A stretch of 64,000 bases of DNA from an uncultured Bacteroidota bacterium. Lineage in GTDB: Bacteria > Bacteroidota > Ignavibacteria > UBA10030 > UBA8401. This document shows positions 31,652 through 46,308 of this stretch, piece by piece; the stretch's first letter is position 1; the number at the start of each line of letters is the position of its first letter. The stretch is from assembly GCA_937920105.1 (NCBI GenBank), contig CALETH010000070.1, forward strand, positions 7,483-71,482. The letters run 5' to 3'. A model generated the notes under the pieces. It ran no database searches, was not told where the DNA came from, and saw only the letters and a program-made list of their open reading frames with translations. Position numbers and translations under genes: made by a program.

Positions 31652-32020
31652 TTAGTTTTTGGGTGCTATTTTCTTCTGTTGTTTTCTTTCTTTAAAGAAA
31701 GTATAAAAAATGTAGATGAACATTACATCTGTATAGAAACTTAATACCGTACCGGCTATTCCTGTTCCTAAAAATGTTATTTCGTTTTCGTTGGTTGTAG
31801 GAATAATATACATTGTCCACAAACGACCGAAGGACCATACGGCTATTGTTCCGGCAATGACATAAGCAAAATAAGGAACGTGTGAGTTTTTTTGTTTTTG
31901 TATTTTCTCAAACCTTTTACGATTAATAACAATAAGTGAAGCAGCAATGCAATATAAAATAACTACTGCAGTCTTTAACATTATTTGTTGGTTTTCAAAA
32001 ATAGAATTTAAAAATCCCAT
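31652..32020 (-). CDS. Small membrane protein
   Basis: 3-4 predicted TM helices. Confidence 0.4.
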   Translation of the reverse strand: MGFLNSIFENQQIMLKTAVVILYCIAASLIVINRKRFEKIQKQKNSHVPYFAYVIAGTIAVWSFGRLWTMYIIPTTNENEITFLGTGIAGTVLSFYTDVMFIYIFYTFFKERKQQKKIAPKN

Positions 32021-32106
32021 AACACAAAATTAGTTTTTAACACAATTTTACTTTTACAGCAGTATAATACTATTTCAAAATTTGGCTATATGTAGCCACT
32101 CCTTAC

Positions 32107-32150
32107 AAAAAACACGAAAGCGGAGAAGGTATTTCACTTCGTCCGCTTTC
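32107..32150 (-). terminator. Rho-independent terminator (minus strand) after the T9SS cargo gene
   Basis: Stem gaaagcgga/tccgctttc with a T-run on the minus strand (plus-strand aaaaaaca). Confidence 0.5.
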
Positions 32151-32277
32151 AGTAACTTCCATATTTTGTATGGAAACACTTTGTAGGTTTCTATAGAAAA
32201 TTATGCTATGCAATGGTGTGTAATATTATATGTTGGTTACATTATATAATTTAATTTTAAGAATGTCAAGAGATTAT

Positions 32278-32904
32278 TTATTTCACCAGCATCATCCGTT
32301 TTCTAAATACCTCAGTTTTGCCTGTTTCATTTTTGTAGCGACACTCATAAATATACATTCCGCTGGACACACTACTTGCATTCCATTGTTGTTGATGGTA
32401 ACCTGCTGTTTGTTCTTGCTCTACTAATTTGGAAATTTCTTGTCCCAATGTGTTGTAAATTACTAACTGCACAAATCCATTGGTTGGTAATTGATAGGTA
32501 ATTGTTGTTATGGGATTGAATGGGTTGGGATAGTTTTGTTGTAACTCAAATTTTTCTGGTGCTAATATTGTATAAGCAATTTCTTTTTTCCATTCTTCTC
32601 CATTAGTAGATTGTACAACTATGGTAAATTTTTGTTCTGTATTGACTGGTGCTGTTTTTTCTATTGCAAAGTTGAGTGTGATAGTTTTTTCTTCTTGGCT
32701 ATTCAAGGATATTTCTTGTACTGAATTATTTTTTATAGTTATTCCTTGTGGGAGGTTTTCTACTTTTACGGAGAGTGTTGTAGTAATAACTCCAGTATTG
32801 GCAATGGTAAATTCTACAGAATTATTTTTTGATGCAAAGGGTATTTTTGCTGTTTCTGCTTTGGCAATGTTGAGCAAGAAGAGGATGATGATGAGTTTTT
32901 TCAT
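32278..32904 (-). CDS. Small secreted protein with T9SS C-terminal sorting domain (prophage cargo)
   Basis: Signal peptide. C-terminus NYPNPFNPITTITYQLPTNGFVQLVIYNTLGQEI...GMYIYECR is the T9SS CTD signature. Confidence 0.7.
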   Translation of the reverse strand: MKKLIIILFLLNIAKAETAKIPFASKNNSVEFTIANTGVITTTLSVKVENLPQGITIKNNSVQEISLNSQEEKTITLNFAIEKTAPVNTEQKFTIVVQSTNGEEWKKEIAYTILAPEKFELQQNYPNPFNPITTITYQLPTNGFVQLVIYNTLGQEISKLVEQEQTAGYHQQQWNASSVSSGMYIYECRYKNETGKTEVFRKRMMLVK

Positions 32905-32958
32905 AAAAGTTTTTAGTTATTAGTGTATAATTTTTTGTTATTTCTACAAAAGAGTCAT

Positions 32959-32990
32959 AGTCATTCCCGCACGTTGTAAGGGGGAATTCA
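32959..32990. repeat. REP-like palindromic element copy 3 (inside the prophage cargo island)
   Basis: AGTCATTCCCGCACGTTGTAAGGGGGAATTCA shares its termini with the host copies. Confidence 0.5.
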
Positions 32991-33077
32991 GTTTAAAATA
33001 TTTAGAACGCTGATTTCTTAAGATTATTACTGATTATTTTCTTATTCTATTTTTCTTACTTCTTCTACCTTCTTATT

Positions 33078-34418
33078 TTATTTCTTCAATCTTTCCAAAA
33101 TATATTTAGAATTATCCGTTAAAAAATCATATCCATCTTTGGTAACAAAACGTGGTGTGTTAAGTTTGAGATATTCTTTTTCTAATTTGCTGTTGTATTT
33201 TTCCAACTCGGTGATACATTTGTTTTTATTGTTTTGCAAATAATGATTTTTTGCATTGCTGATGGTAAGAGTTAGTTCGTTGACAAAGTTTGCATTACCA
33301 ATCCAGTTGAGTGTAGCAGATTGTTTAGTAAAAGATGCTAATGTATCTAACGTGGCGGGAATAGACAAAGAATCTAAATGCTCATTAATATTTTCTTGAT
33401 AATGGTCTCTTAATTCATAATAAAGATGAGTATAGTAAGACCCACCCTGTGGAAGTTGGGCTAATAATTTTTGTAATTCATATTTAACTACTGGTGTAAT
33501 AAGGTCTTGCATACGCCATATTACATTATATGCTAATGAAGTATCGGTAATTGGCGGAGTGATTAAAGCCATACATGCGGGAATAACGGATACATCATTA
33601 TAATATTCTATAAGATGCCAAATTGCTTCATACCGTACTTTTGTTGATGTATCAGTAAAAGCGAACTGTTTGAACAATGTATAGGTTTCTGAAAAATCTT
33701 TAAAATTAATTAATACACCGACAGCATGAGCACGGTATTCTACATTAGGAACGGTTAATAATTCTTTATATCGTGTATAGACTTGTGAACGTAAAGGAAG
33801 ATTTCTTCCAAACCATGCTAAATAATTTTGATTTATTTGTGTATATGGAAGCGAGGAATAATAATTGTAATACGAATAATCTTGATGATGAAGCACTACA
33901 CACAATGCTTTTTCAAATGCATCATCTATCCATTTTATATAGTAAGGGGCGGGACGTGGATTTTGCCTTCTTGTTATTATCGTATCCAATAATGCTTTTG
34001 CCATTGGATATGCATCAGGGTCACCAAGCTGGTCTAATGCAAGAAGATAATCACCCATTAAATAAGTATGTTTTACATTTCCTTGTAATGATTCATAATA
34101 TCGTTGTTTCATAGCGGGGATAATATCTGTTTTTCCACGAGCTGCTAACATAATATATGCTCCGTGGCTTTTTTCATAAAAACGGTTTCTCCTTATTTGT
34201 TGTGTGTTTTCATCATAATTTTGGTAGTTTGTGGTATCAATTAATAATGAATATAATTGTGCCTCTGTTACTGTTTTTTCTTCTCTTGGAGTGTTAAAAA
34301 CTCGTAAAAGCCAAAGCATTTTTATCCCTGCCTCTTCGGAAAAACAGGGATTGTTCTGTGCAATAGTTATTGATGTTATAGATAATATTATCGTACATAA
34401 AAAAATGTATCGTTTCAT
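33078..34418 (-). CDS. Hypothetical secreted protein (446 aa)
   Basis: Signal peptide and no recognisable catalytic motif. Largely helical, Tyr-rich composition. Confidence 0.45.
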   Translation of the reverse strand: MKRYIFLCTIILSITSITIAQNNPCFSEEAGIKMLWLLRVFNTPREEKTVTEAQLYSLLIDTTNYQNYDENTQQIRRNRFYEKSHGAYIMLAARGKTDIIPAMKQRYYESLQGNVKHTYLMGDYLLALDQLGDPDAYPMAKALLDTIITRRQNPRPAPYYIKWIDDAFEKALCVVLHHQDYSYYNYYSSLPYTQINQNYLAWFGRNLPLRSQVYTRYKELLTVPNVEYRAHAVGVLINFKDFSETYTLFKQFAFTDTSTKVRYEAIWHLIEYYNDVSVIPACMALITPPITDTSLAYNVIWRMQDLITPVVKYELQKLLAQLPQGGSYYTHLYYELRDHYQENINEHLDSLSIPATLDTLASFTKQSATLNWIGNANFVNELTLTISNAKNHYLQNNKNKCITELEKYNSKLEKEYLKLNTPRFVTKDGYDFLTDNSKYILERLKK

Positions 34419-34436
34419 AAATGTTCTCCGTAAATA

Positions 34437-36383
34437 TTATAAGTTAAATTTTGTTTTGATTGCTTTCACTAAATTCTCAAGATATTTTTTTTCTTTTTCA
34501 TGGGCTATAATTTCATTGGCATTCCAAAGTTTTGTATCAGTATCAAATGGACCAATTTTTCCTCGTAAAGTCATATCCACATCTCTTTCTTTATCTTTAA
34601 GTTGTTGTTGAGTGATGTTTTGTGCAAGCGTTGTCGGCATACAAGGGTTAGTAATTTGTAGTTCTGTTTTTACTGTATCTATAATTCTTGCTATACCGGC
34701 TTTATATTCCGTTGCGTGAGTGAGTTCATGCAATGCAATCCCTTCTAAAGAAACATAATTGTTCATCGGGATGGATTTTTCTGCATCAGTTAGTTTTTTT
34801 GCTGGGTCAAACTCATTGGCTTTTTGATATCTTTTAATCACTTTTTCAATATCTTTCATTTGTTTTTCGTACTCTTTTACAACAGCAATGGCCATGTTTT
34901 TATCGGTAACTTGGTTCACGTTATCCACCTTTGTTTTACCAGAATTAGCACAAATAAAAACTCCAATATTTGCATAGACATCTGCTATTTCGTATTTCAC
35001 ACAATTTCTTTGTTGGTCTAAACATAATACTAATTGCAGCATGTTTTGGGTTTCGTCCGGCAGTTGCAATCGCGTATATCCGCCTTCATCACAATTAGCA
35101 CCCATAACGTAATTTTCTGTTATAGAAAATTGAGACGGATTGTTGCATGGCTCAAATTTTTCACCATCTACTTTAAAAAGTGCTTGTGCAATTTTCTTTA
35201 ACCAATTCGCTGTTAAAATAACTGTTGGTGTAGAAGTTACATTACTATTTGCTGCACTCGAACCCACCAATCCTTTTAATCCATCCAACCCGCCGTTTTT
35301 TGCTGTTGTTGTTGGTGGTGGTGGTGGTGCATTTGTCGGCTGACCTATCACTTTTACTTTTCCTGCTAATACTTCATCTAAAGTTGCGGTGGTATAATTT
35401 ATTCCTGCTAATTCTGGTTTATCTAAAGAAAAATTTATGATACTATTTCCAGGTAAGGTAGAAGTAATATCGGTACTATCACTTCTGTATCCTTTTACAC
35501 TCACAATGGCACTATCTCCATAATTAATACTATCTGGGGTAACAAATACTTTGATGTGGTGTAAATCATTTGCACGAATGAGTATTAACTTTCCAGTTGT
35601 ATCACTGGCACTTCCGGCAATATTGGTGGCTGTTACTTGTACCGGTGTTCGTAATGTATCTCCGGGTTTTATTTGGTTAAGATAGTTTTGTGTATTAAAT
35701 GTTTGTTGCGGCGACCATGTTGTTGTTGGTGCGTATTTTCCTGCTGGTGTAGTTGAACAGGTATAACTTGCTATAGGAAATGTTGTTGTTTGACTGCTGA
35801 TAGTATATTGTTTTATTTTTGTTCCGGTGATACTTACCGTTGGTTTTGGTATTGGTCTGTAACGGATAGTTCCGTGAAGTTCATAGGGTCCACTTCCATT
35901 GGGATAATTGATACTTCTATAGACATTAGTGGTAATAAGGTCTCCTTGTGTTGGTGGAACTACTGGTTGATACTGAATAGAGGTTGTATTGTATGGTGGT
36001 GATATGCCGTAATTATATTCTGGTCCGTTATAGTTTTTTACTTCTGCAGTAGTACTTAATGGGACTGGTCCGATAGTAGGACTTCGCACCATCCATACAG
36101 TTTTACCAGGAAATCTTGCATTGAGTGCAATGGTATCTACTTGTCCGGTAGAAAGTTCTAATCGTGTAAGTCCTCCCATTCCAGGCCATGGTGTATAGGG
36201 ATAATAATAGAGATGGTAATAATAATAAATATCTACCCATGTTGTAGTTTGGTCTGGTGTACTTGTTGCTTGCAATGGTATTTTGAGTTTTGGTTGTATC
36301 TCTAATCGTTCTTTAATGATGACTTGGGAATAAAGTGAGAAGGAAGAAAGAAGTAGTATGAAAAGCGTAGCGAATTTTTTCAT
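34437..36383 (-). CDS. Large secreted protein with C-terminal HEXXH (putative zinc-metallopeptidase-like) domain
   Basis: Signal peptide, a beta-rich N-terminal half, a PPPPP linker and a C-terminal LEGIALHELTHATEYKAG HExxH motif. Confidence 0.5.
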   Translation of the reverse strand: MKKFATLFILLLSSFSLYSQVIIKERLEIQPKLKIPLQATSTPDQTTTWVDIYYYYHLYYYPYTPWPGMGGLTRLELSTGQVDTIALNARFPGKTVWMVRSPTIGPVPLSTTAEVKNYNGPEYNYGISPPYNTTSIQYQPVVPPTQGDLITTNVYRSINYPNGSGPYELHGTIRYRPIPKPTVSITGTKIKQYTISSQTTTFPIASYTCSTTPAGKYAPTTTWSPQQTFNTQNYLNQIKPGDTLRTPVQVTATNIAGSASDTTGKLILIRANDLHHIKVFVTPDSINYGDSAIVSVKGYRSDSTDITSTLPGNSIINFSLDKPELAGINYTTATLDEVLAGKVKVIGQPTNAPPPPPTTTAKNGGLDGLKGLVGSSAANSNVTSTPTVILTANWLKKIAQALFKVDGEKFEPCNNPSQFSITENYVMGANCDEGGYTRLQLPDETQNMLQLVLCLDQQRNCVKYEIADVYANIGVFICANSGKTKVDNVNQVTDKNMAIAVVKEYEKQMKDIEKVIKRYQKANEFDPAKKLTDAEKSIPMNNYVSLEGIALHELTHATEYKAGIARIIDTVKTELQITNPCMPTTLAQNITQQQLKDKERDVDMTLRGKIGPFDTDTKLWNANEIIAHEKEKKYLENLVKAIKTKFNL

Positions 36384-36475: not shown

Positions 36476-36503
36476 TTGACAAATTTCAAGTATGTAGTAT
36501 ATT
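36476..36503 (+). promoter_or_regulatory. Sigma70-like promoter (TTGACA-16-TATATT), candidate late promoter
   Basis: -35 at 36476-36481 and -10 at 36498-36503. An intrinsic terminator follows about 50 nt downstream. Confidence 0.4.
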
Positions 36504-36552
36504 AGGTCTGTGGAGAGTGAATCTCCGTAATGCGTTCTCCGTGTTTTATTTA

Positions 36553-36588
36553 AGCCCGTTGCTGGTCCCAGCGGTAACGGGCTTTTTT
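36553..36588 (+). terminator. Strong intrinsic terminator immediately upstream of the packaging operon (tR'-like)
   Basis: agcccgtt...aacgggct stem with an inner gctgg/ccagc, then TTTTTT. Confidence 0.6.
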
Positions 36589-36610: not shown

Positions 36611-37219
36611 ATGAACATCACCGATAGAATTCTCAAAACAGAAAAAATTGCATGGCGTGAATTGGAATGGTTCATTATTGAAAAGAATGTTGAAGTAAAA
36701 GAAATATTGCAATCCAATTTTGATAAACTGAAAAAAAGTTTGTTAGAAAATTCTGTTATTCAAACGTTCGCTGTGTGGGAGCATGACGGCAAGATAGTAA
36801 TTTTGGATGGAAGGGAAAAACAAAAAGCACTTCAAGAATTAGAGAATGAAGGACACACTATTCCGGATATACTTTCTGCAAATTTTATTGAATGCAAAAA
36901 TACTGCAGAAGCCGCAAAAGTAGTATTACTGTATTCTTCCATTTATGCAAAACTTACGGAAGAAGGTTTATCCTATTTGATTGCTCTTACACAAACTGAC
37001 CTTAATAAATTAATAAAAGAAATAGAACTACCATCATTCAATTTGAGCAAGTTTGTAGAAAAACAATTGACTGAAGAAAACGGAATTTCTCCGTTAAAAG
37101 AATTCAATTACACTCCGCAGTATGGAGTGATTGTTTTGTGTGAAGATGAAGAAAAACAAAAAATCATTTACGAAAAATTAAGCGGGCAAGGATATTCTTG
37201 CCGAGTTGTTGTTACATGA
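36611..37219 (+). CDS. Putative ParB/Srx-like nuclease-domain protein
   Basis: ATG at 36611. Only a loose ParB-N pattern (...VILDGREKQKAL...). Its stop overlaps the next start (ATGA). Confidence 0.3.
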   Translation: MNITDRILKTEKIAWRELEWFIIEKNVEVKEILQSNFDKLKKSLLENSVIQTFAVWEHDGKIVILDGREKQKALQELENEGHTIPDILSANFIECKNTAEAAKVVLLYSSIYAKLTEEGLSYLIALTQTDLNKLIKEIELPSFNLSKFVEKQLTEENGISPLKEFNYTPQYGVIVLCEDEEKQKIIYEKLSGQGYSCRVVVT

Positions 37220-38355
37220 AAATAGATATTCACCATCAATGTAGTGATTTCCAAAGTTACAGAGCCGCACGAGTAAAAAGTTTATTCAACGCGGAGAAGG
37301 GATGTGATTTTCTTTTTTCGTGTGAACTGAATATAGATGACCCGAATTGGAAACTTGGTGTCATTGTCGGTCCAAGTGGAAGCGGAAAAAGTTCTCTCGG
37401 TAAAAAAATTTTTGGTGAAGAGTTTCTCTACAATATGGAAAATGATTGGAATGTTGATAGTCCGATTATAGACTGTATTGCTCCCACTGGAGATTTTAAC
37501 GAAGTAACCGGAGCGTTAGCAAGTGTAGGTTTAGGAGATGTCCCAGCATGGTTACGTCCGTTTCATGTTCTTTCTAACGGACAAAAATTTCGTGCAGGGC
37601 TTGCACGATTGATAGTTGAAAAACCGGAACAAGTCGTTGTTGATGAATTTACCAGTGTGGTTGATAGACAAATTGCAAAGATAGGAGCGCAAGCATTTGC
37701 CAAAGCATGGAAACGCGGAAAAGGTCAATGTGTGTTGTTATCCTGCCACTATGATATCCTTGATTGGTTAGAACCGGATTGGGTATTTGACACGGCAAGC
37801 GGAAAGTTTGCAAGGGGGAATCTTTGGCGAAGGCCACAATTTGAACTTCAAATTTGGAAGACAAACTCCAGTTACTGGAAATATTTTAAACCGCATTACT
37901 ATTTGAATTTACCAATGCCAATTGCGGCAGAATATTTTGTTGGAACTGTAGAAAATGAACTTGTATGTCATCTTGCTGTTACACCGTTTTTTACAGCGAA
38001 ATCGTACAGAGCAACACGATTAGTAGTAATGCCGGAATGGCAAGGTGCTGGTGTAGGAACAAAATTTTTGGATTGGGTATGTGAGTATCATTTACAAGGA
38101 GACGGAAGATGTGGTAAAAAATTTCCTGTGAGATTTCATACTTCACATCCTCAACTTTGTAATGCACTACGAAAAAATTCAAAGTGGAATCAACTTGGAG
38201 CAGTGCTGTATGGAGGCAACAAAAAAAAATCTATTCAAACTATCGGTAAGTCTTCGCTACGAAGAAGTAAAAAAATAGGAACTGGTTTTGGTGGACATTT
38301 TAGGGCAGTGCAAAGTTTTATGTATATCGGAAACAAAAATAAATTCACACAATGA
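37216..38355 (+). CDS. ABC-type ATPase domain fused to GNAT-fold acyltransferase domain
   Basis: Walker A GPSGSGKS, ABC signature LSNGQKFRAGLARL, Walker B VVVDEF and H-loop LLSCH. A C-terminal GNAT motif A is present (RLVVMPEWQGAGVGTKFL). Confidence 0.6.
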   Translation: MKIDIHHQCSDFQSYRAARVKSLFNAEKGCDFLFSCELNIDDPNWKLGVIVGPSGSGKSSLGKKIFGEEFLYNMENDWNVDSPIIDCIAPTGDFNEVTGALASVGLGDVPAWLRPFHVLSNGQKFRAGLARLIVEKPEQVVVDEFTSVVDRQIAKIGAQAFAKAWKRGKGQCVLLSCHYDILDWLEPDWVFDTASGKFARGNLWRRPQFELQIWKTNSSYWKYFKPHYYLNLPMPIAAEYFVGTVENELVCHLAVTPFFTAKSYRATRLVVMPEWQGAGVGTKFLDWVCEYHLQGDGRCGKKFPVRFHTSHPQLCNALRKNSKWNQLGAVLYGGNKKKSIQTIGKSSLRRSKKIGTGFGGHFRAVQSFMYIGNKNKFTQ

Positions 38356-38852
38356 ACGCTTATATATACAATGCTGATTCAAATCAAGTTATGATAAATG
38401 AGGCAAAACGGCTTCTTAAAAATATGAATATCACACAAGTAGAATCACTGAGTGAAGCAGATATTGCTATTGCACCGTTTCTGACAAAAAAACTTTCAAA
38501 AGAAATTATAAGCGTTCCTCGTTATGGAACGCTCATATTTCATCCTTCATTATTACCTCGACATAGAGGGAAAGATGCTATCAAGTGGGCATTCAAATTA
38601 CAAGAACGTTATACCGGTGTTACATGGTTTTGGGCAAGCGAGAGTTATGATACAGGAGATATTTGTGAACAAGAAGTTGTTGCAATACAAGAAGGTGAAA
38701 CACCATGGAATTTTTATACACGTGCAGTAGTACCGGTTGCAATGAGAACTCTACGTAGAGTATTGTTTGATATACAACATAATATCATAAGAAGAATTCC
38801 ACAGTATGAAGAACACGCAAGTTATGAACCGCCATTTGAAACAAAAAAATAA
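38352..38852 (+). CDS. Minimal formyltransferase-domain protein (Fmt/PurN catalytic core)
   Basis: GTLIFHPSLLPRHRGKDAIKWAF...GVTWFWASESYDTGDI matches the Fmt motif xNxHxSLLPxxRG...DTG. The Asn position is Ile. No C-terminal tRNA-binding domain. Confidence 0.6.
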   Translation: MNAYIYNADSNQVMINEAKRLLKNMNITQVESLSEADIAIAPFLTKKLSKEIISVPRYGTLIFHPSLLPRHRGKDAIKWAFKLQERYTGVTWFWASESYDTGDICEQEVVAIQEGETPWNFYTRAVVPVAMRTLRRVLFDIQHNIIRRIPQYEEHASYEPPFETKK

Positions 38853-38855
38853 ATC

Positions 38856-40154
38856 ATGAAACAATTAACCTCATTACAAGAATTACGTCCATGGGTTTCT
38901 AACCCTCGTGAAATTGGCAAAGAAGAATTTGCCGGTTTAAAAGTTTCTCTTGAAGAGTTTGGAGATTTGAGCGGTATAGTTTTTAACGTAAGAAATCAAT
39001 CGTTAGTGTGCGGACATCAAAGAGTGGTAGCAATTCAAGAACGTTTTGGAAATGCTGTAAGAATAGAAGGTAATGTTATTATTCTACCTACTAACGAAAA
39101 ATTTATTATTCGCTTTGTTGATTGGGACGAGGCAAAGCATTCCGCTGCAAATGTTGCAGCAAATAGTCAACATTTGTCGGGAAACTACACAAAAGAATTA
39201 GTTCCGTTATTAGATACACTTGATAAAAATATTCCCGAGCTGTTTAAGAAACTTAATTTTCCGGAATTAAAAAATGAATTCAAACATTTTTGGGAAGACA
39301 AACAAAAAAATGATGATGCTATTCCGGAACTCACAACTTCGCCAAAAACAAAAGTAGGTGATGTGTATGAGTTAGGGAATCACAAACTTTTATGCGGTGA
39401 TAGTACGGTAAAAGAACATGTTGATACACTTCTTGGAAATGAAAAAATACATCTCTTATTCACATCTCCGCCATACAATATGGACAGCAATCTTTATGCA
39501 CACTATAAAGATAATCGTAACAATAAAGATTTTGTGTTGTTCAATGTTCACGTGTTGATGAATTGGAAACGATACCTTGCAAGCAATGGTTTTGTTTTTT
39601 GGAATATGAGTTACAATGCTCACAGCGGTTCGAGTTTTCTTGAAGCGTATTATCACTTTATCAATCACACAGGACTTGTTTTTCTTGAAGACATTGTTTG
39701 GGATAAAGGCCATGGAATGCCGTTAACAAATCAATTAACCAGACAGTATGAACACATTCTTGTTTTGAATGAAAGTCCCGAAGCAATTCATTTTGTCGAC
39801 CACATCGGAGTTTTTGGAGTTAAAAAAATTCCTTTCATAAAAAAAAGAAATCGTGGTATTACAAACTACTGGAGATTAGATACCTACGGTTCACAAAATG
39901 AACATATCAAAGCAGCATTTCCGGTAGAACTTCCTACAAAAGCAATAGAAATATCAACAGTTGAAGGTGATACTGTAGCAGATTGCTTTGGTGGAAATGG
40001 AACAACGCTTATTGCATCAGAAAAATTAAAGCGACGTTGCGTAATAATGGAGTTAGACCCTTTGTATTGCGATATGATTGTTACTCGTTATTGTAATTTT
40101 GTTGAAAATCCTATAGTGAAACTGAATGGAAAAGAAATTCACTGGAAAAACTAA
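38856..40154 (+). CDS. ParB-like nuclease domain fused to beta-class N6-adenine/N4-cytosine DNA methyltransferase
   Basis: N-terminus LRPWVSNPREI...VCGHQRVVAI is ParB-N. Motif IV FTSPPYN precedes motif I DCFGGNGTT, which is the beta-class order. Confidence 0.75.
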   Translation: MKQLTSLQELRPWVSNPREIGKEEFAGLKVSLEEFGDLSGIVFNVRNQSLVCGHQRVVAIQERFGNAVRIEGNVIILPTNEKFIIRFVDWDEAKHSAANVAANSQHLSGNYTKELVPLLDTLDKNIPELFKKLNFPELKNEFKHFWEDKQKNDDAIPELTTSPKTKVGDVYELGNHKLLCGDSTVKEHVDTLLGNEKIHLLFTSPPYNMDSNLYAHYKDNRNNKDFVLFNVHVLMNWKRYLASNGFVFWNMSYNAHSGSSFLEAYYHFINHTGLVFLEDIVWDKGHGMPLTNQLTRQYEHILVLNESPEAIHFVDHIGVFGVKKIPFIKKRNRGITNYWRLDTYGSQNEHIKAAFPVELPTKAIEISTVEGDTVADCFGGNGTTLIASEKLKRRCVIMELDPLYCDMIVTRYCNFVENPIVKLNGKEIHWKN

Positions 40155-40190: not shown

Positions 40191-40754
40191 ATGGCAGCAA
40201 CAAAAAGAACAAAAATTGAAATTCAAAAAGAGCGAATGGAAATTGCTCGTTATTACTTGCAAGGAAAATCTCAAATCGAAATCGCTCAAATATTGAGTTC
40301 CGAAACACGAAAAGTAACTCAACAAATGGTGAGTTATGATTTGAAGATTATTCAAGAGGGATGGTTGCAAAGTGCATTACGAGATTTTGACGAGGCACGT
40401 GCTCAAGAACTTGCAAGGATAGATGCGTTAGAACGTGAATATTGGGAAGCATGGGAACGTTCAAAAGTACCACTCAAAGTTACTGAAAGTGAACGTTCCG
40501 ATGGAAATACATCAACAAAAAAAGCAAAGATTAAACAAACCGATTCCATTGGAAATACAAAATATCTTGAAGGTGTGCAATGGTGTGTAGAAAGACGATG
40601 TCAGTTATTAGGATTTGACGCTCCTAAAAAATTAGACCATTCAGGAAAATTAAATCTTAACAACTATAGTTTTGATGTGAGCAAACTTACCGATGAACAA
40701 TTGCAACGAATTATAAAAGGAGAAAATCCTTTGAATGTTATTAGTGCAACCTAA
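40191..40754 (+). CDS. Terminase small subunit (HTH)
   Basis: HTH region YYLQGKSQIEIAQIL. It sits immediately upstream of, and overlapping, TerL. Confidence 0.55.
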   Translation: MAATKRTKIEIQKERMEIARYYLQGKSQIEIAQILSSETRKVTQQMVSYDLKIIQEGWLQSALRDFDEARAQELARIDALEREYWEAWERSKVPLKVTESERSDGNTSTKKAKIKQTDSIGNTKYLEGVQWCVERRCQLLGFDAPKKLDHSGKLNLNNYSFDVSKLTDEQLQRIIKGENPLNVISAT

Positions 40755-42159
40755 TGAGAAAATGGATTTTCGTGTACAAGCAATGGCGGAAATTGAACTT
40801 CGCAAAAGAGTCGGTGGAAGTTTCGAAAACTTTGTCAATCATGTAAAAAAAGGAAAGTACGAATGGTATCGTCATTGCAAAGTTCTTGCAAACACATTAG
40901 AGAAAGTTCTTTCCGGTGAGATAAAACGTTTGATGGTATTTATGCCTCCACGTCATGGAAAAAGTGAATTAGCCAGCAGACTTTTTCCTGCATACACTCT
41001 CTATAAAAGAGAAACAATACAGATAGGTTTAACTTCTTATAGTGGAGACCTTGCTCATAGTTTGAGTCGATACGCACGAGACAATTATGAAATATCAGGA
41101 AAAGTATTACGCAATGATGCAGCCGCTACTCGTGAATGGTACACACTTACTAACGGTGTCATGTGGGCGGCTGGTGTTGGTGGTCCCATTACAGGAAAAG
41201 GTTTTGATATAGGAATTATTGATGACCCGTTGAAAAATGCTGAAGAAGCATATTCGGAAAGAGTAAGAGAAAATTGTAAAGAATGGTATGATTCAACGTT
41301 TTATACAAGAGCCGAACCCGATGCAGCAATCATTATTATTCAAACACGATGGCACGAAGATGATTTATGCGGTTGGTTACTTTCACGAGAAGAAGAAAAA
41401 CCGGAACATTGGCACATTCTCCATTTTGATGCACTAAAATCTTCGGAAGAATTACAATTTCCTAAAACGTGTACAGTGGAATACGATTGGAGAAAACAAG
41501 GAGAGGCACTGTGTCCCGAAAGATTTAATGAAGAAAAACTTCGTGATATACAAAAAAAAATTGGTTCTATTTTTTGGACAGCATTATATCAACAACGGCC
41601 AACAGCAATGTCCGGTGATATATGGAGAAGAGAATGGTTCAAAAATACTTTTGAACTTAGCACACTTCTTAATCAAAATATTTTATTAGACGTAGGATAT
41701 GATTGGGATTTGGCATACACGGAAGATGACAGAAACACAGCGTGTTGTTATGTAAAAAGCGGAAGAGATGTAAAAGGAAATATTTACATCCTTGATATTG
41801 GTTTTGAGTGGTACGAATTTCCCGAACTTATTAAATGGATGATATCACTTCAAGGACCGCATTTTATAGAAGCGAAAGCAAGTGGAAAATCTGCAAAGCA
41901 AACATTAACACGACAAAACATAGCAGCAAGTGAAGTAGAAGTTCAAGGCGGAGATAAAATTAGTAGAGCAAGACTTGCTACTCCAATGGTAGAAAATGGA
42001 AAAGTTTTTATTGCTTCACACATACTGGAAAAACTTCTTGAAGATTCGAAACAAGGATTACTCCACTTTCCTAATGGCAGTCATAATGATTTAAACGATG
42101 CTTTTGTGCAATCTATTAACCGACATACAAAACAATCAACACAATTATTTTTTATTTAA
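40735..42159 (+). CDS. Terminase large subunit
   Basis: ATPase motif LMVFMPPRHGKSE and a C-terminal nuclease-like region with acidic residues. Confidence 0.75.
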   Translation: MLLVQPNEKMDFRVQAMAEIELRKRVGGSFENFVNHVKKGKYEWYRHCKVLANTLEKVLSGEIKRLMVFMPPRHGKSELASRLFPAYTLYKRETIQIGLTSYSGDLAHSLSRYARDNYEISGKVLRNDAAATREWYTLTNGVMWAAGVGGPITGKGFDIGIIDDPLKNAEEAYSERVRENCKEWYDSTFYTRAEPDAAIIIIQTRWHEDDLCGWLLSREEEKPEHWHILHFDALKSSEELQFPKTCTVEYDWRKQGEALCPERFNEEKLRDIQKKIGSIFWTALYQQRPTAMSGDIWRREWFKNTFELSTLLNQNILLDVGYDWDLAYTEDDRNTACCYVKSGRDVKGNIYILDIGFEWYEFPELIKWMISLQGPHFIEAKASGKSAKQTLTRQNIAASEVEVQGGDKISRARLATPMVENGKVFIASHILEKLLEDSKQGLLHFPNGSHNDLNDAFVQSINRHTKQSTQLFFI

Positions 42160-42183: not shown

Positions 42184-42621
42184 ATGGGCAGTATAATGTA
42201 TAACAAAATGAAAGAATTGTTTGTTAAAAAACAATTAGGATGGGATGACCCTTCAGCAGTAGTTAAAGTTTTACTTGTTGGACCAGGATATGTTCCTGAC
42301 CCTGACCATGTTTTTTTATCAGATATAAATCTTGCTACGAATGAAGTATCTGGCAACGGATATACACGTAAAACTCTTTCCGGAAGAGTAGTAAATCTTT
42401 CTTCGATTGATGATTGTATTTACGGAGATGCTAATGATATAACGTGGAATGGTTTGAACTGTGGCACTGTTGCCGGAGCAATTGTGTATTTACAAGTTGG
42501 AGGTGATGATACAACTCCTGGCGATGACATTATTTTATTGTATCAAGATAATGCTGATATATCAACTAATGGAGGTGATATTACACTTCAATGGGCAACG
42601 AACGGATTATTTAAAATATAA
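42184..42621 (+). CDS. Hypothetical protein (insert between terL and portal)
   Basis: ORF with aggaga RBS and a Gly/Asp-rich beta-type sequence. Confidence 0.3.
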   Translation: MGSIMYNKMKELFVKKQLGWDDPSAVVKVLLVGPGYVPDPDHVFLSDINLATNEVSGNGYTRKTLSGRVVNLSSIDDCIYGDANDITWNGLNCGTVAGAIVYLQVGGDDTTPGDDIILLYQDNADISTNGGDITLQWATNGLFKI

Positions 42622-42623
42622 CT

Positions 42624-43856
42624 ATGGATGCAATTAAAAATTTTGCGATTTCAAAACTTGCAACAGGTATCAATGCTACTCAAATAACAGCAACTGTTCT
42701 GAATGGAGAAGGTTCACGTTTTCCAGATACAACAATTGACGGTCCGTTTAATGTTGTTATATGGAATAGTAGTTATGCAAATCCTGCTTTAGCATATCAC
42801 GCTGGCGAGGCTGCAATTTATAGAGTGATTGAGAGAACTAACGACCAGTTCACTTTTAAGTCAACCAACAATAATCGTGATGGTGAAGAAGGAACATTAC
42901 CAATTGCTCATAATACTATAGGAAAAAATTATTCTGTAGGATTAATGTTCACTTCTAAAACAATGCAAGATTTAGTAACAGCAATAAATAGTAAACAAAG
43001 TGTTGTTGGCACGATTAGACTAGTCAATCCATCTTTTACGAGTGCAAGTGATGCAGCAAATAATAGATACCCAACAGTAACTGCTGCGATGAATGCAGCT
43101 GTGGCGGGTGATGAAGTTGAGGTTACACCAGGATATTATGATGAAATTGATTCTATTTCTTTAAAGAATGGTGTAAACCTTTATCTTCATGCTGGAGCCG
43201 GTATAACAAGCACAACAAGCAATGATGGTGTAGTATTTAAGACTGTTGGAACGGTAAACTGTATTATTGCTGGTTATGGTGATATTGGCAAAGATGGGAC
43301 ATATTTTAACATTACAGGGAGTGGAGAAATTTATATTTCTGCAAATACAATTTTCAGTCTCTATATCAACGGGAATGCAATGGTAAGAGTGAATACCAAT
43401 AAAATAGTTGAGGAACTTATCATCAATAATCCAAATGCAAATTTTCAAATACATGCACAAAGAATAAATTATTACACTGATAATAGCAGTAGTAACAACG
43501 TAGTAATTTATGATGCTTCATTTGGTGGAACAGGTATTCAAAATTCAGCAAAACCAAAACTTTACAATTGTAATTTTGATAATGCAGAATTTAATGTGTA
43601 TGGCAATGCAGCACCGGAACTTTATAATTGTTACCTCTACTATGTTGGTGTTTTTAATAATGCAAAGCCAAAATTTTATAACTGTAGTTATTTTTTCAAC
43701 GTAGACATCATGTTAAATCATGCTACTGTGCAACCAACATTTATTGGATACAATCGTGTATATGTTTTGGAATCAGTAACGCCAACTGCTATTGTATATG
43801 CTTCCGGTTCTTTAATAGTAGATAATCCATTTAACATTAACATTGTACCAATATAG
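42624..43856 (+). CDS. Right-handed beta-helix repeat protein (pectate-lyase-fold-like; possible tail spike, fibre or depolymerase)
   Basis: Repeated xYNCxFxNAxFNVYGNAxPxLYNC segments are typical of parallel beta-helix proteins. Confidence 0.45.
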   Translation: MDAIKNFAISKLATGINATQITATVLNGEGSRFPDTTIDGPFNVVIWNSSYANPALAYHAGEAAIYRVIERTNDQFTFKSTNNNRDGEEGTLPIAHNTIGKNYSVGLMFTSKTMQDLVTAINSKQSVVGTIRLVNPSFTSASDAANNRYPTVTAAMNAAVAGDEVEVTPGYYDEIDSISLKNGVNLYLHAGAGITSTTSNDGVVFKTVGTVNCIIAGYGDIGKDGTYFNITGSGEIYISANTIFSLYINGNAMVRVNTNKIVEELIINNPNANFQIHAQRINYYTDNSSSNNVVIYDASFGGTGIQNSAKPKLYNCNFDNAEFNVYGNAAPELYNCYLYYVGVFNNAKPKFYNCSYFFNVDIMLNHATVQPTFIGYNRVYVLESVTPTAIVYASGSLIVDNPFNINIVPI

Positions 43857-45030: not shown

Positions 45031-46308
45031 ATGAAATTTTTCGATGGATTGTTTAATTCCCTTGCTGATAGAATTTTTGAAAAAGTAGAACAAAGAAAAT
45101 ATTCTAAAACTGAAAATCTTCCTGAAGATATTTTTTATGTTTATCCGGCTTCTACGGGTTTTGGATTGTCAGAAAGCAACATGGGAAATATTGCACGCTA
45201 CTCTTCTGCTTTTCGCGGATTATCATATCGTTGCCTTCATTTACGTTCCGATGCCATTGCCGATGCAATGAGTAAACTTAGTGTTGAGCGAAAAACAAAA
45301 CAGTTAGAATATAAAGAAGTAGAAGCAACGCATCCATGGGTTACTTTATTGCGAAGTCCATCAGATGTAATCTCCAGTGTTGAATTATGGAAATGGATTT
45401 CACTTGCTTGTGATATGAAGGGACATGCAGAACTATTTGTTTATAGAGATGCGTACGGAATACCGATTTCATTATTACCTGTGTATTCAGTTTTTGGTAG
45501 TGTAGTTCCAAAACCGGATATCTATGGTGGAATAGAAAGTTACATTTTTTATAGTGCTTCTGGTGAAAAATATAATGTTCCTGTAGAAAATGTCATACGA
45601 TTTAAACATCTCAATCCGGAAAGCCCTTATGCAACAGCTTCACTTATACAAGCAGCCGCATATCAAATAGATATAGATTTGTACACTAAAATTTATCGTC
45701 GGGATTCTTTACGAAAAGGTGGAGTGAATTCGCTTGCATTGGTGAGCGACCAAGAGCTTTCAGAACCACAAGTTGAACTCTACGGAAAAAAATTTAAAGA
45801 AAAAGTTTTCGGTATGGAAAAAATCGGAGAGGTTCCGGTGATGGGAAAAGGTTTAAAGCCGTATAACTTTGCAATAAGTGCGAAGGACTTAGAATTTATT
45901 CAAGGTGTAAAAGTCAATGATACAGAGGCACTACAAATTTTTGGTGTGCCCGAGGGAATGGTAAGCGATAAATCCAATCGAGCAAATGCACGAGAAGCAA
46001 GATTAGTATTCTATCAAAACACTATACAACCACAAGTATTGATTTATGCACATCAAATGACATCATGTTTTGAAAAAATCTTTCAATCGGATAGAGGTGT
46101 ATTAGAAATACGAGTACCGGATTTATTACCGACGGACCATGATTTTGAATTGCGAAAAAATATAGAGTATGTGAAATCCGGAATTTACACTCGCAACGAA
46201 GTAAGAAGTGAAGATGGAAGAAAAGAAATTCCTAATGGAGATGAAATTATTATTAATACAAATTCAATGTTTCTTTCACAGTTACATAATACCAAGGAGA
46301 AAAAATAA
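45031..46308 (+). CDS. Portal protein (HK97 family)
   Basis: Size about 425 aa and position. Portal-like motifs present. Confidence 0.55.
   Translation: MKFFDGLFNSLADRIFEKVEQRKYSKTENLPEDIFYVYPASTGFGLSESNMGNIARYSSAFRGLSYRCLHLRSDAIADAMSKLSVERKTKQLEYKEVEATHPWVTLLRSPSDVISSVELWKWISLACDMKGHAELFVYRDAYGIPISLLPVYSVFGSVVPKPDIYGGIESYIFYSASGEKYNVPVENVIRFKHLNPESPYATASLIQAAAYQIDIDLYTKIYRRDSLRKGGVNSLALVSDQELSEPQVELYGKKFKEKVFGMEKIGEVPVMGKGLKPYNFAISAKDLEFIQGVKVNDTEALQIFGVPEGMVSDKSNRANAREARLVFYQNTIQPQVLIYAHQMTSCFEKIFQSDRGVLEIRVPDLLPTDHDFELRKNIEYVKSGIYTRNEVRSEDGRKEIPNGDEIIINTNSMFLSQLHNTKEKK

Follow-up and report, generated by a model that had tools for sequence, protein, structure and literature searches.

Mom of phage Mu is a GNAT-fold enzyme that modifies double-stranded DNA late in infection (PMC13219725). 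ParB-like proteins activate post-replicative phage T-dioxygenases, whose loci often adjoin terminases (PMC13229309), and prophages are enriched for ParB::methyltransferase fusions (PMC12704722). The PF00551 enzyme DpdN is a predicted formyltransferase for a substituent on a DNA base, and other phage PF00551 groups without the preQ pathway were set aside in the study describing it (PMC10516641). The locus considered here lies in a prophage of a Bacteroidota bacterium, within a window of 64,000 nucleotides, the whole stretch of DNA that was analysed. A first-pass annotation had interpreted four of its genes, encoding a ParB-like protein, an ABC-ATPase::GNAT fusion, a minimal Fmt-like formyltransferase and a ParB-fused DNA methyltransferase, as a candidate novel nucleic-acid modification system. 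It knew of no described phage system that combines these domains, which was borne out by the literature, NCBIfam and PADLOC, in which no paper or curated family for the cassette was found.

Organization of the Locus

Four co-directional ORFs with coupled starts and stops were confirmed on the + strand: ORF1 (36611-37219, 202 aa, with an alternative TTG start at 36590), ORF2 (37216-38355), which encodes the ABC-ATPase::GNAT fusion, ORF3 (38352-38852, 166 aa), a short-form formyltransferase-superfamily enzyme of the FDH-N-terminal-domain type, and ORF4 (38856-40154, 432 aa), a ParB-N::beta-class N6A/N4C DNA methyltransferase. Both ATGA overlaps described in the first-pass annotation can be read in the sequence, at 37216-37219 (ORF1/ORF2) and 38352-38355 (ORF2/ORF3), and 3 nt separate the ORF3 stop from the ORF4 ATG. 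The ORF positions agree with its description of a single coupled unit preceding terS/terL. A terS-like gene (40191-40754, +) with an HTH match and a weak TerS_N match comes next, followed by terL (40735-42159, +; Terminase_6N 6e-12, Terminase_6C, phrog_38 4e-82), portal (45031-46308) and capsid (47045-48418) genes. The operon leader (36476-36584, +) contains a sigma-70-like promoter match at 36476-36503, found by a scan with the sigma-70 consensus, from which Bacteroidota promoters deviate. It is followed by a G+C-rich hairpin of 13 bp and a T tract (36552-36584), the end of which is ~25 nt 5' of the ORF1 ATG. No Rfam family reached its gathering score on the leader.

A Conserved Three-Gene Cassette

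The conserved unit consists of three genes, encoding the ParB-like protein with its tail, the ABC-GNAT protein and the Fmt-superfamily enzyme. The order ORF1-tail/ORF2/ORF3 is found again in hundreds of unrelated contigs, and so is not a chance arrangement. When phage loci were grouped into 47 clusters at 90 % identity, the Fmt-like gene lay directly 3' of the ABC-GNAT gene in 41 of the 43 that were assessable; among 80 prophage loci it was present in 71 and the tail ORF in 70. The prophage loci span more than 10 phyla, including Bacteroidota, Bacillota, Verrucomicrobiota, Planctomycetota, Acidobacteriota, Chloroflexota, Spirochaetota and Pseudomonadota. Identity between homologues remains 53-70 % across phyla, and grouping at 50 % identity gives 527 clusters at E <= 1e-30. 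Cultured phages that carry the cassette include Burkholderia phage phiE255 (gp28-30), Gordonia phage Axumite (genes 1-3) and Porphyromonas phages. Its invariant ABC motifs, GNAT motif A and Fmt His/Asp residues suggest that it is active and under selection.

The cassette is nearly missing from plasmids (3 of 72,556 records); methyltransferase-type anti-restriction genes are common on plasmids. Within the same GNAT clade, the Fmt-like gene is missing from ~11 % of cassettes, and these continue straight into terS. The cassettes of Mu-like phages, in phiE255 and 6 similar loci, follow baseplate and tail-fibre genes, far from terminase, and the end-of-late-operon site in phiE255 corresponds to that of mom in Mu. 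Some neighbourhoods have features of their own: no separate small terminase is annotated beside genes 1-3 of the Gordonia phages, in Streptococcus phages the gene after the cassette encodes an ASCH domain (PUA-like, RNA-associated), Pasteurella phage Pmp13 has a Tad2-like anti-Thoeris gene two genes 5' of its cassette, and the tail peptide in Porphyromonas phage records is tagged 'acr candidate' by automatic prediction.

ORF4 stands outside the conserved cassette as a co-transcribed, unrelated neighbour. It matches N6_N4_Mtase (PF01555, 122.5 bits; phrog_498 2e-71), and its N-terminal ParB-type region matches PHROG ParB-like families 620 and 8071 (about 1e-12). The protein carries a CGHQR sequence (39009-39023, +) and belongs to the beta class because motif IV (TSPPY, 39462-39476, +) precedes motif I (FGGNGTT, 39987-40007, +). 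Pfam, PHROG and hhalign all support the original identification of a ParB-fused beta-class methyltransferase. Yet a methyltransferase occurs within 3 kb of the ABC-GNAT gene in just 3 of 80 prophage loci, and a census of 84 phage loci, covering 3 to 6 kb on either side, yielded a single methyltransferase match, ~5 kb away (locus L034). The ParB::methyltransferase is thus no conserved partner, the four-gene system did not hold up, and modification 'coordinated with methylation' finds no comparative support. The first-pass annotation had considered that these genes might never lie near methyltransferases elsewhere; this is nearly the case as regards ORF4, and it does not touch the pairing of the ABC-GNAT and Fmt-like genes, whose co-occurrence is near-constant. 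ORF4 would be an independent enzyme that shares the operon by happenstance.

Domains of the Cassette Proteins

The body of ORF1 (36611-37219, +) comprises a divergent ParB-N-like domain and then a helical linker. Its G-H-G-R motif is degenerate, reading G-R-E-K (LDGREKQKAL, 36803-36832), and the window ORF1 alone gave no significant ParB match in Pfam. It can nevertheless be aligned over its full length with a family whose members match ParB_N (PF02195) in 29 of 34 cases, so that the ParB-like call was right, with the caveat of a degenerate motif and a Pfam match via relatives only. The profile of this family matches the ParB region of ORF4 with an hhalign probability of 90.8 %, which places the effector of the cassette like the DNA methyltransferase domain in ParB::MTase fusions. 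The universally conserved part of the family is the C-terminal tail QYGVIVLCEDEEKQKIIYEKLSGQGYSCRVVVT (37118-37216, +; phrog_28816 7e-11), a beta-alpha-beta element of ~33-35 aa. A tail-bearing ORF lies directly 5' of the ABC-GNAT gene at every locus of the phage census, as a stand-alone ORF of 50-60 aa or fused to a ParB-like domain, and natural ParB-tail-ABC-GNAT fusion proteins occur (P0264, P0293, P0329). The ParB domain is dispensable, the tail peptide of ~50 aa being present alone in 44 of 70 prophage cassettes, in phiE255 and in Porphyromonas phages. The tail is probably a docking element for ABC-GNAT, and ORF1 and ORF2 are presumably physically coupled.

The N-terminal half of ORF2 (37216-37860, +) is a transporter-type ABC nucleotide-binding domain (NBD; PF00005, 35.3 bits). 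Its Walker A (37369-37392, +), LSNGQ signature (37570-37584, +), Walker B (37633-37650, +) and H-loop (37741-37755, +) are invariant across 32 homologues, and the assignment of an ABC ATPase joined to a GNAT domain was correct. The best Foldseek matches are ABC NBDs, e.g., MalK, FtsE, HrtA and SufC, and the domain is thus of the transporter type rather than an SMC/Rad50/UvrA DNA clamp; weak matches to the ABC-F/EttA ribosome-binding factors were also obtained. None of the neighbourhoods examined contained a membrane partner, and one homologue contains an intein inside the ABC domain. The C-terminal half (37861-38355, +) has the GNAT acyl-CoA N-acyltransferase fold. Motif A, RLVVMPEWQGAGVG (38017-38058, +), is invariant among homologues, and its QGAGVG aligns to the CoA-binding loop of solved GNATs; KPHYYL (37888-37905, +), FHTSHP (38134-38151, +) and GFGGHFRAVQSF (38284-38319, +) are specific to the clade. 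The best, though weak, sequence matches of the GNAT profile are to diamine/spermidine and protein N-terminal acetyltransferases.

ORF3 matches Formyl_trans_N (PF00551; 5e-21) and contains HPSLLPRHRG (38541-38570, +) and the catalytic Asp in YDTGD (38646-38660, +), with His64 and Asp100 invariant in 32 homologues. Its N-terminus is ~32 aa shorter than in most cassette homologues, and the C-terminal tRNA-binding domain is absent, as the first reading had stated. The best PDB matches are the N-domain of 10-formyl-THF dehydrogenase (FDH; 1e-22) and HypX/HoxX (1.5e-11), behind which Fmt, PurN and ArnA rank; ORF3 scores 84 bits with FDH vs. 44 with Fmt. It falls under every NCBIfam equivalog cut-off, including those of its best match, TIGR00460 (methionyl-tRNA formyltransferase, 6e-18; 65 bits vs. 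201.5), and of PurN (38 bits vs. 150). The label 'minimal Fmt' therefore had to be given up in favor of the FDH N-terminal domain and, more weakly, HypX as closest solved relatives, and the likely chemistry differs accordingly from that first envisaged. Long (~205 aa) and short (~165 aa) forms, 27-30 % identical, fill the same slot; the FDH N-domain is the best match of both, while similarity to HypX is limited to the short form. Close ORF3 homologues stand alone in bacterial chromosomes, and in an actinobacterial genome one shares a run of same-strand genes with a CoA_transf_3 gene, five genes 3' of the latter. PHROG and GenBank label the cassette gene as a PurN-like auxiliary metabolic gene.

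The Sister Clade and the Third Slot

A sister clade keeps the ParB-like and ABC-GNAT genes directly 5' of terS/terL. The ParB-like ORF immediately precedes ABC-GNAT in 80/80 loci, and a large terminase from one of at least three unrelated families lies within 2.5 kb 3' in 59/80. The third slot is empty or holds an aspartate decarboxylase and a CoA-transferase-like gene: PanD (2e-33) and a CoA_transf_3-like protein (2e-8) replace the Fmt-like enzyme in phage Jace and 5 further loci. These contents suggest that the role of the third slot is to provide the GNAT with an acyl donor. FDH and HypX both deliver a formyl group from 10-formyl-THF to a pantetheine thiol. Since the Fmt-like gene is missing from ~11 % of cassettes and ORF3 homologues occur alone, the GNAT cannot depend strictly on a donor made by the cassette.

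Proposed Function

The cassette is tentatively proposed to encode a ParB-coupled, ATP-driven, CoA-thioester-dependent N-acyl/formyl transferase that acts on phage DNA late in infection. The effector would be ORF2, an acyl-CoA-type N-acyltransferase whose access to substrate may be driven by ATP-dependent dimerisation of its ABC domain, and the beta-alpha-beta tail of ORF1 would couple it to a ParB-like DNA-binding or NTP-switch domain. The third gene would provide or tailor the transferred group. ORF3 may take formyl from 10-formyl-THF and place it on the CoA thiol, giving formyl-CoA for the GNAT, or may instead formylate an amine that the GNAT has installed; the aspartate decarboxylase and CoA-transferase-like protein of sister cassettes could form a beta-alanyl-CoA route, and an empty slot would leave host acyl-CoA, e.g., acetyl-CoA. 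Expressed at the head of the late/packaging operon, the cassette would N-acylate or N-formylate phage DNA shortly before packaging, leaving an anti-restriction mark with a role like that of Mom. The domain identities, the intact catalytic motifs, the gene order, the fusions and the phage-specific distribution and position were observed directly, and from them we infer the coupling of ORF1 to ORF2, a CoA-thioester donor, donor supply from the third slot, DNA as the target and the anti-restriction purpose.

The nucleic-acid modification role first suggested stays the best reading. DNA is a putative target, suggested by the association with ParB, by where the genes lie and by analogy. The dispensable ParB domain, with its degenerate motif in the window, the transporter-type NBD, the restriction of HypX similarity to the short form and the near-absence from plasmids run against the proposal. 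N-acyl groups at adenine N6 are reportedly unstable (PMC13219725), and a plain N-formyl or N-acyl mark on a purine might therefore be short-lived.

Alternative Explanations

The alternative that survives best, itself unlikely, is that the ParB-like and ABC-GNAT pair works with terminase while third-slot genes provide the acyl group, the acceptor being terminase, portal, another packaging factor or polyamines condensed with DNA; the packaging initiation region might also be marked or recognised. This would suit the location of the pair directly 5' of terS/terL in the window and 59/80 sister-clade loci, the direct continuation of Fmt-less cassettes into terS, the almost phage-only distribution (plasmids, 3/72,556), the weak GNAT-profile matches to diamine/spermidine and protein N-terminal acetyltransferases, and the Gordonia phages with no separate small terminase annotated by genes 1-3. 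However, the Mu-like cassettes (phiE255 and 6 loci) are remote from terminase, the window carries its own terS-like gene, and the non-homologous terminases alongside argue against a specific protein partner. The late-operon head also houses phage DNA methyltransferases and ParB-dependent dioxygenases.

It is improbable that the cassette acts on translation, either to take over the host or to counter tRNA-directed defences, with the GNAT acylating and the Fmt-like enzyme formylating the alpha-amine of aminoacyl-tRNA or a ribosomal component. GNAT toxins do acetylate aminoacyl-tRNA, and the Fmt family includes methionyl-tRNA formyltransferase, the best NCBIfam match of ORF3 (TIGR00460, 6e-18), but ORF3 has no tRNA-binding C-domain, remains far below the Fmt cut-off and is much nearer FDH. 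Likewise, the weak ABC-F/EttA matches come from a single NBD, whereas ABC-F proteins have tandem NBDs. Charged tRNA could be the donor, as Gly-tRNA(Gly) is for Mom (PMC13219725), although a CoA donor fits GNAT motif A. The ASCH domain gene after Streptococcus phage cassettes would be in keeping with translation, but the obligate partner is a ParB-type domain and host takeover would be odd from a late-operon site.

Comparably doubtful is acylation by the GNAT of a metabolite or immune signal (a nucleotide second messenger, NAD-derived signal or polyamine), regulated by the ATPase and the ParB-like NTP-binding domain. Close ORF3 homologues do stand alone among metabolic genes, and the Tad2-like gene near the Pmp13 cassette and the 'acr candidate' tag on the Porphyromonas phage peptide hint at counter-defence; but the tag was predicted automatically, no specific match came from PADLOC or anti-defence-related libraries, and the obligatory ABC ATPase fusion, ParB coupling, natural fusions and constant position before packaging genes would be left unexplained. 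Finally, an independent folate/one-carbon auxiliary metabolic gene merely travelling beside ABC-GNAT, as the PurN-like annotation, the database label 'cyanobacterial phosphoribosylglycinamide formyltransferase', the lone bacterial homologues and the lack of the Fmt-like gene in ~11 % of cassettes and the sister clade might imply, is very hard to reconcile with the low PurN score of ORF3, its translational coupling to ORF2 via the ATGA overlap, adjacency in 41/43 and 71/80 loci across more than 10 phyla, and two divergent Fmt forms in one slot, which points to selection for activity in context.

Comparison with Known Systems

The proposed DNA acyltransferase resembles Mom in its GNAT fold and phage origin, and would share its late expression and post-replicative action on double-stranded DNA for restriction evasion (PMC13219725). 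Mom differs in being a single domain with an HTH-like insertion that uses Gly-tRNA(Gly) and no CoA thioester, and it has no ATPase, ParB or Fmt-like partner. In TmcA/NAT10, an NTPase motor is fused to an acetyl-CoA-dependent GNAT that acylates the exocyclic amine of a nucleobase, the logic proposed for ORF2, but the substrate is RNA and the product N4-acetylcytidine. TmcA is driven by a RecD-like helicase domain, accompanied by DUF1726 and a tRNA-binding domain, and has neither ParB nor Fmt partners. ORF2 has an ABC NBD and only marginal motif-A matches to NAT10 (E 0.34); the analogy drawn in the first-pass annotation is thus one of functional logic and does not extend to a homologous motor.

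ORF3 shares HPSLLPRHRG and the catalytic His/Asp with the N-terminal hydrolase domain of FDH (ALDH1L1), and the long form aligns with all 200 aa of its catalytic subdomain (1e-29). The cassette protein consists of this subdomain alone, without the second subdomain or the carrier, ALDH or hydratase domains. Formyl transfer to a pantetheine thiol, as in FDH/HypX, would fit the feeding of a CoA-dependent GNAT. By description, ORF3 can also be likened to DpdN, the phage PF00551 enzyme predicted to be the dPreQ1 formyltransferase of 7-deazaguanine-modifying phages, which is accompanied by DpdA and preQ biosynthesis genes (PMC10516641); none of these genes was present among the scanned window ORFs or scanned representatives of recurrent neighbour families.

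The ParB-partnered DNA-modification systems comprise ParB::N6/N4 methyltransferases, ParB-dependent T-dioxygenases, DndB (Dnd) and DpdB (Dpd). As in the cassette, a ParB-N module is adjacent or fused to an enzyme that acts post-replicatively, often by terminase genes (PMC13229309, PMC12704722), and the module of the ORF1 family is homologous to that of ORF4. The cassette is set apart by its partner, an ABC-ATPase-driven GNAT not found described, and by coupling via a small beta-alpha-beta tail able to exist without the ParB domain. It occurs in phages whose hosts belong to more than 10 bacterial phyla.

Organization of the prophage and of the late operon

The region around ORF1–ORF4, four plus-strand open reading frames preceding terS and terL, belongs to a prophage for which integrase, early, and late gene blocks are present in the window. 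A tRNA-Arg (TCT) gene (19597–19671) lies beside a minus-strand tyrosine integrase gene (19726–20766), and this segment (19597–20766) is probably the left attachment site. Host genes occupy the sequence to its left, including that for the DNA polymerase III delta subunit (18177–19181). Adjoining the integrase is a gene for a staphylococcal nuclease homolog (SNase, 20804–21466; 7e-30), whose C-terminus shows a PBCV basic adaptor motif, if a weak one. The early region encodes, among other products, an exonuclease of the YqaJ type and an HTH replication protein, and a block of minus-strand genes (30081–36383) separates it from the late operon. Among its products, one (32278–32904) carries a C-terminal T9SS sorting domain, a second, of 446 aa, is HEAT-repeat-like and begins with what resembles a signal peptide, and a third, of 648 aa, contains an HExxH motif (ALHELTHATEY). 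These genes resemble morons or lysogenic-conversion genes with secreted products. The T9SS domain and a G+C content of ~33% for the window point to a host that is probably a Bacteroidota; a search of the GTDB representative genomes for an exact 50-mer found no match.

The leader preceding ORF1 (36476–36584) contains a promoter-like match, TTGACA-16-TATATT, followed by a strong 13-bp G+C-rich hairpin and a T tract. It ends ~25 nt before ORF1, matched no Rfam family at gathering score, and resembles in its layout a late promoter with a terminator that is read through by an antiterminator. The four ORFs agree with their description in the first-pass annotation: ORF1 (ParB-like, 36611–37219), ORF2 (ABC-ATPase::GNAT, 37216–38355), ORF3 (Fmt-like, 38352–38852), and ORF4 (ParB::methyltransferase, 38856–40154). 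Direct reading of the sequence verified that start and stop codons overlap as ATGA at 37216 and again at 38352, and that ORF3 and ORF4 are separated by 3 nt. The late operon continues with terS/terL (40191–42159), a portal gene (from 45031), and a capsid gene (from 47045). The terS-like ORF (40191–40754) overlaps the start of terL by 20 nt; its match is to phrog_645, a family that seems to be mislabeled as “Rnase E.” Two ORFs of 145 and 410 aa between terL and the portal gene (42184–43856) had no Pfam match.

ORF2 joins an ABC ATPase to a GNAT domain

The motifs of the ORF2 family are those of an intact ABC ATPase fused to a GNAT, whose motif A reads as the canonical CoA type. The N-terminal part of ORF2 is an ABC nucleotide-binding domain (NBD). 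It has a Walker A (GPSGSGKS), an ABC signature (LSNGQ), a Walker B (VVVDEF), and an H-loop (SCHYD), none of which varies among relatives, and PF00005 scores 35.3 bits against a cut-off of 25. The top Foldseek matches of this domain are all NBDs of the transporter type. Many database records label these proteins as ABC transporters, a role that was rejected since no recurrent permease cluster lies beside ABC-GNAT genes in ~240 loci and no NCBIfam transporter equivalog comes near its cut-off for ORF2. The neighbors in those loci are ParB-like, Fmt-like, PanD (aspartate decarboxylase)/CoA-transferase-like, terminase, and tail genes.

The C-terminal half of ORF2 was assigned to the GNAT fold. Its WQGAGVG loop does not vary among relatives and lines up, in solved GNATs, with motif A, the pyrophosphate-binding loop (Q/R-x-x-G-x-G/A). 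Among the PDB profile matches of the C-terminal 170 residues, 22 of 23 are GNATs, all on motif A only, so that the sequence evidence is marginal; Pfam scores for this half likewise fall under their cut-offs (22.8 versus 27 and 18.1 versus 20.7), while some homologs pass. The PHROGs family phrog_11143 (“unknown function”) matches ORF2 end to end (1e-145).

ORF1 and its conserved C-terminal tail

ORF1 has no significant Pfam match in its window copy, PF02195 included, and at the NTP-binding or catalytic motif of ParB proteins (G-x-x-R, as GHGR or GERRxR) GREK stands where the family has GHGR. ParB_N was nevertheless matched in 29 of 34 relatives in an alignment that spans the full length of ORF1, and a profile of the ORF1 family aligned with the ParB region of ORF4 with an hhalign probability of 90.8%. 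Conservation in ORF1 is highest over the last ~33 residues, hereafter the tail, which are predicted to form a beta-alpha-beta unit and match phrog_28816 (7e-11). In three natural fusion proteins related to ORF2 (P0264, P0293, and P0329), direct reading of the sequences gave the order ParB-like, tail, ABC, and GNAT. The existence of these fusions is Rosetta-stone evidence that ORF1 and ORF2 may act as a complex.

ORF3 is a short member of the formyltransferase superfamily

ORF3 was placed in the branch of the formyltransferase superfamily that resembles the N-terminal domain of 10-formyl-THF dehydrogenase (FDH), with a PF00551 score of 75.6 bits versus 26.1 (5e-21). The FDH N-terminal hydrolase domain is its best PDB match (1e-22), followed by HypX/HoxX (1.5e-11), with Fmt, PurN, and ArnA lower. 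The HPSLLPRHRG loop is identical to that of FDH, and the predicted catalytic pair, His64/Asp100, is invariant in 32 homologs. Assignment as methionyl-tRNA formyltransferase (Fmt) was rejected because ORF3 has 166 aa, without the C-terminal tRNA-binding domain, and scores 65 bits on TIGR00460 against a cut-off of 201.5. The label PurN GAR transformylase, which homologs carry in databases, was rejected at 38.2 bits on TIGR00639 (cut-off 150.1) and for want of the N-terminal region in which PurN has its GAR phosphate-binding loop, and ORF3 is also far under the curated equivalog cut-offs for ArnA and PurU.

Although ORF3 lacks the N-terminal ~32 residues of long forms, including their G-x-x-F-G region, it belongs to a large and conserved subfamily of 160–180 aa with invariant catalytic residues, and it is therefore not a decayed gene or truncated pseudogene. 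Long and short forms, only 27–30% identical, share one slot after the ABC-GNAT gene, are both FDH-N-domain-like, and have the FDH N-terminal hydrolase domain as their best PDB match. Short-form homologs ~52–55% identical to ORF3 also occur alone, in bacterial chromosomes without ABC-GNAT, in Lysinibacillus xylanilyticus (L090:6001–6507) and in a Streptosporangiaceae MAG (L092:6001–6537). The latter lies in a same-strand run with genes for an HpcH/HpaI lyase, CoA_transf_3, an isochorismatase, an MFS transporter, an HD protein, and a DMSP-lyase-like protein.

A conserved cassette of three genes

The conservation of gene neighborhoods was surveyed in censuses that used crude six-frame ORF calling and phmmer (E ≤ 1e-3) and took the best 80 loci per scan. 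The phage census comprised 80 IMG/VR loci, which are redundant, and four GenBank phage loci around ORF2 relatives of at least 55% identity. An ORF with an ORF1-type tail lay directly upstream of ABC-GNAT in every locus, and after clustering at 90% identity (47 clusters) a Fmt-like ORF lay directly downstream in 41 of the 43 assessable clusters. In a de novo clustering of neighbors, broad sharing was seen for these three families alone.

A prophage census of 80 loci from GTDB representative genomes covered Bacteroidota, Bacillota, Verrucomicrobiota, Planctomycetota, Acidobacteriota, Chloroflexota, Gemmatimonadota, Spirochaetota, and Alpha-, Gamma-, and Deltaproteobacteria, among others. A tail ORF was found upstream in 70 of these loci, as a peptide of ~50 aa in 44 and fused to a ParB-like domain in 26, and a Fmt-like gene was adjacent in 71; in the remaining nine, ABC-GNAT runs straight into terS/terL. 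The conserved unit is thus three genes, encoding the ORF1 tail, ABC-GNAT, and the Fmt-like protein, hereafter the cassette. The tail always accompanies ABC-GNAT, usually as part of a ParB-like protein and at times within one fusion protein with ABC-GNAT itself.

ORF4 is a ParB-N::beta-class N6A/N4C methyltransferase by its PF01555 match (122.5 bits versus 26.7) and motif order, TSPPY (aa 203–207) before FGGNGTT (aa 378–384), and its activity is predicted. The first-pass annotation had proposed a four-gene system that included this methyltransferase. That grouping did not hold, because only 3 of 80 prophage loci have a methyltransferase within 3 kb of ABC-GNAT and the phage loci have practically none, while the other three genes are conserved; ORF4 is a neighbor of the cassette and not a component.

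The ORF2 family is large, with 527 clusters (50% identity) at E ≤ 1e-30 when 1.84 billion cluster representatives were searched exhaustively with HMMER, and identity across phyla is 53–70%. One relative, P0304, contains a Hint/LAGLIDADG homing-endonuclease intein inside the ABC domain, and P0390 (807 aa) may be a second intein carrier. In Burkholderia phage phiE255, the cassette corresponds to gp28–gp30, after the tail-fiber genes; in Gordonia phages such as Axumite, it consists of genes 1–3, followed by terminase, with gene 3 mislabeled “tRNA-methyltransferase.” Porphyromonas gingivalis phages also carry it, with the tail peptide labeled “acr candidate,” and misannotation of its genes in databases as “ABC transporter,” “PurN,” or “tRNA methyltransferase” is routine. 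Plasmids hardly ever carry the family (3 of 72,556 records), and on this ground a general anti-restriction gene of mobile elements was rejected.

A sister clade with a variable third slot

ABC-GNATs of 30–45% identity to ORF2 form a sister clade, found in Leptospira phages LE3/LE4, Pasteurella Pmp13, Lactococcus P335, Streptococcus prophages, Arthrobacter EastWest, and Rhodococcus/Gordonia phage Jace. The sister clade has no Fmt-like gene and also lacks the FHTSHP and GYGGHFR motifs of the cassette clade to which ORF2 belongs. Among its best 80 IMG/VR loci, a ParB-like ORF was directly upstream in all 80, and a large terminase lay within 2.5 kb downstream in 59. The terminases belong to three or more families that are not related to one another, among them Terminase_6, TerL_ATPase, and GpA.

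In Jace (gp87–gp88; L087:4074–5185) and five further loci (L096, L103, L105, L117, and L142), the third slot, i.e., the position after ABC-GNAT, is occupied by PanD (PF02261, 2e-33) and a truncated family-III CoA-transferase-like protein (2e-8). PanD is very rare elsewhere in phage records. Judged by family membership, the gene after ABC-GNAT usually handles an activated one-carbon or CoA-linked acyl unit.

Two variants of the sister clade were also seen. In streptococcal versions (phiNIH1.1, L004:6014–6391, and related prophages), ABC and GNAT are separate ORFs, and the Fmt-like gene is replaced by one for an ASCH (PUA-like) domain, a kind of protein connected with N4-acetylcytidine and with nucleic-acid binding. 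Pasteurella Pmp13 carries, two genes upstream of its ParB-like and ABC-GNAT pair, a gene (L086:1242–1796) for a protein with N4 gp49/Sf6 gp66 and Tad2-like (Thoeris anti-defence 2) domains.

Possible function of the cassette

The reading placed first, which is held tentatively, is that the cassette acylates or formylates phage DNA. The tail would dock the ParB module to the NBD, and the GNAT would draw on a CoA thioester whose acyl group is supplied or tailored by the product of the third slot. The FDH N-domain and HypX move formyl from 10-formyl-THF to a pantetheine thiol, so an FDH-like enzyme beside a CoA-dependent GNAT seems well placed to make formyl-CoA. PanD with a CoA-transferase could yield beta-alanyl-CoA, and an empty slot may imply a host donor, e.g., acetyl-CoA. 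The occurrence of an ORF3 homolog near CoA_transf_3 in the actinobacterial gene run is consistent with the donor idea, if weakly.

Several observations suggest DNA as the target. The ParB module of the ORF1 family is one that also carries DNA methyltransferase domains. The cassette heads the late operon or, in Mu-like phages, occupies the position of mom. ParB-like partners also switch on thymidine dioxygenases that act in phages after replication, and they form part of two systems of DNA modification, Dnd and Dpd (PMC13229309, PMC12704722, PMC10853773). Precedent in phages is also set by Mom, a GNAT-fold protein that acts on phage DNA bases (PMC13219725), and by DpdN, a PF00551 enzyme predicted to do so (PMC10516641). 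Other findings weaken the acylation model: most cassettes do without the ParB domain, and the window copy of it is degenerate; the NBD is of the kind seen in transporters and not of the SMC, Rad50, or UvrA kind; and N6-acyl-adenine is reported to be unstable (PMC13219725). Moreover, ~11% of cassettes in the same clade have no Fmt-like gene, and close ORF3 homologs stand alone in chromosomes. That ORF3 is simply an unrelated metabolic gene appears very improbable. A fuller version of DNA acylation, in which a ParB-tethered, ABC-driven GNAT would N-acylate nucleobases of dsDNA before packaging as a new class of hypermodification, is doubtful as a whole. Its acyl group would be set by the third slot as formyl (formyl-CoA made from 10-formyl-THF by the FDH-like enzyme), beta-alanyl, or, by default, acetyl.

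The very constant position before terS/terL and the exclusivity to phages fit a packaging-linked role equally well, and such a role, while unlikely, is the strongest of the rivals to DNA acylation. Two further proposals, that the target is aminoacyl-tRNA or translation and that the cassette encodes a small-molecule or counter-defence enzyme, both seem improbable to the same degree.

Comparison with known systems and implications

If the cassette acylates or formylates DNA, it would enlarge the phage anti-restriction repertoire in two ways: by new chemistry, in which acyl groups are transferred from CoA thioesters and the genes that supply the donor can be swapped, and by a new enzyme architecture, in which a small tail docks a GNAT-fused ABC motor to a ParB module. 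Such modification would have bearing on phage therapy host range, virome sequencing artefacts, and enzymatic DNA-labeling tools. On the fuller version described above, the cassette would be the first CoA-thioester-dependent DNA acylation system, present in phages of >10 bacterial phyla. Whatever its target, it ranks with the more broadly distributed and better conserved gene sets of phages that have no assigned function, and cultured carriers (phiE255, Gordonia Axumite-type phages, Jace, and Leptospira LE3/LE4) make the question directly testable.

No curated family in NCBIfam or PADLOC names ORF1–ORF3, and their PHROGs are of “unknown function.” A defence-system component was rejected, as PADLOC yields generic ABC and methyltransferase matches only. 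The 7-deazaguanine (DpdA/DpdN) pathway was likewise rejected: no DpdA or Que genes were found among the 20 ORFs scanned in the window, whose annotation covers part of its ORFs, or among the scanned representatives of recurrent neighbor families. Phage PF00551 groups outside this pathway have been noted and not followed up (PMC10516641). No published description of the cassette was found in the full-text literature searched, which covers few subscription journals.

The TmcA/NAT10 family is defined by DUF1726, a RecD-like helicase ATPase, GNAT, and a tRNA-binding domain, whereas the ATPase of ORF2 is of the ABC type, with no Pfam match to TmcA domains and with matches to NAT10 on motif A only (E 0.34–0.37). 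Mom-type DNA-modifying GNATs are distinguished by an HTH-like insertion, catalytic R111/S124, and an aminoacyl-tRNA donor, and ORF2 falls outside this group. All of the folds are already known, as is the theme of a ParB-partnered phage nucleic-acid modifier beside terminase; as far as searched, the ABC::GNAT effector, its proposed coupling through the tail, and the putative exchangeable donor slot are new.
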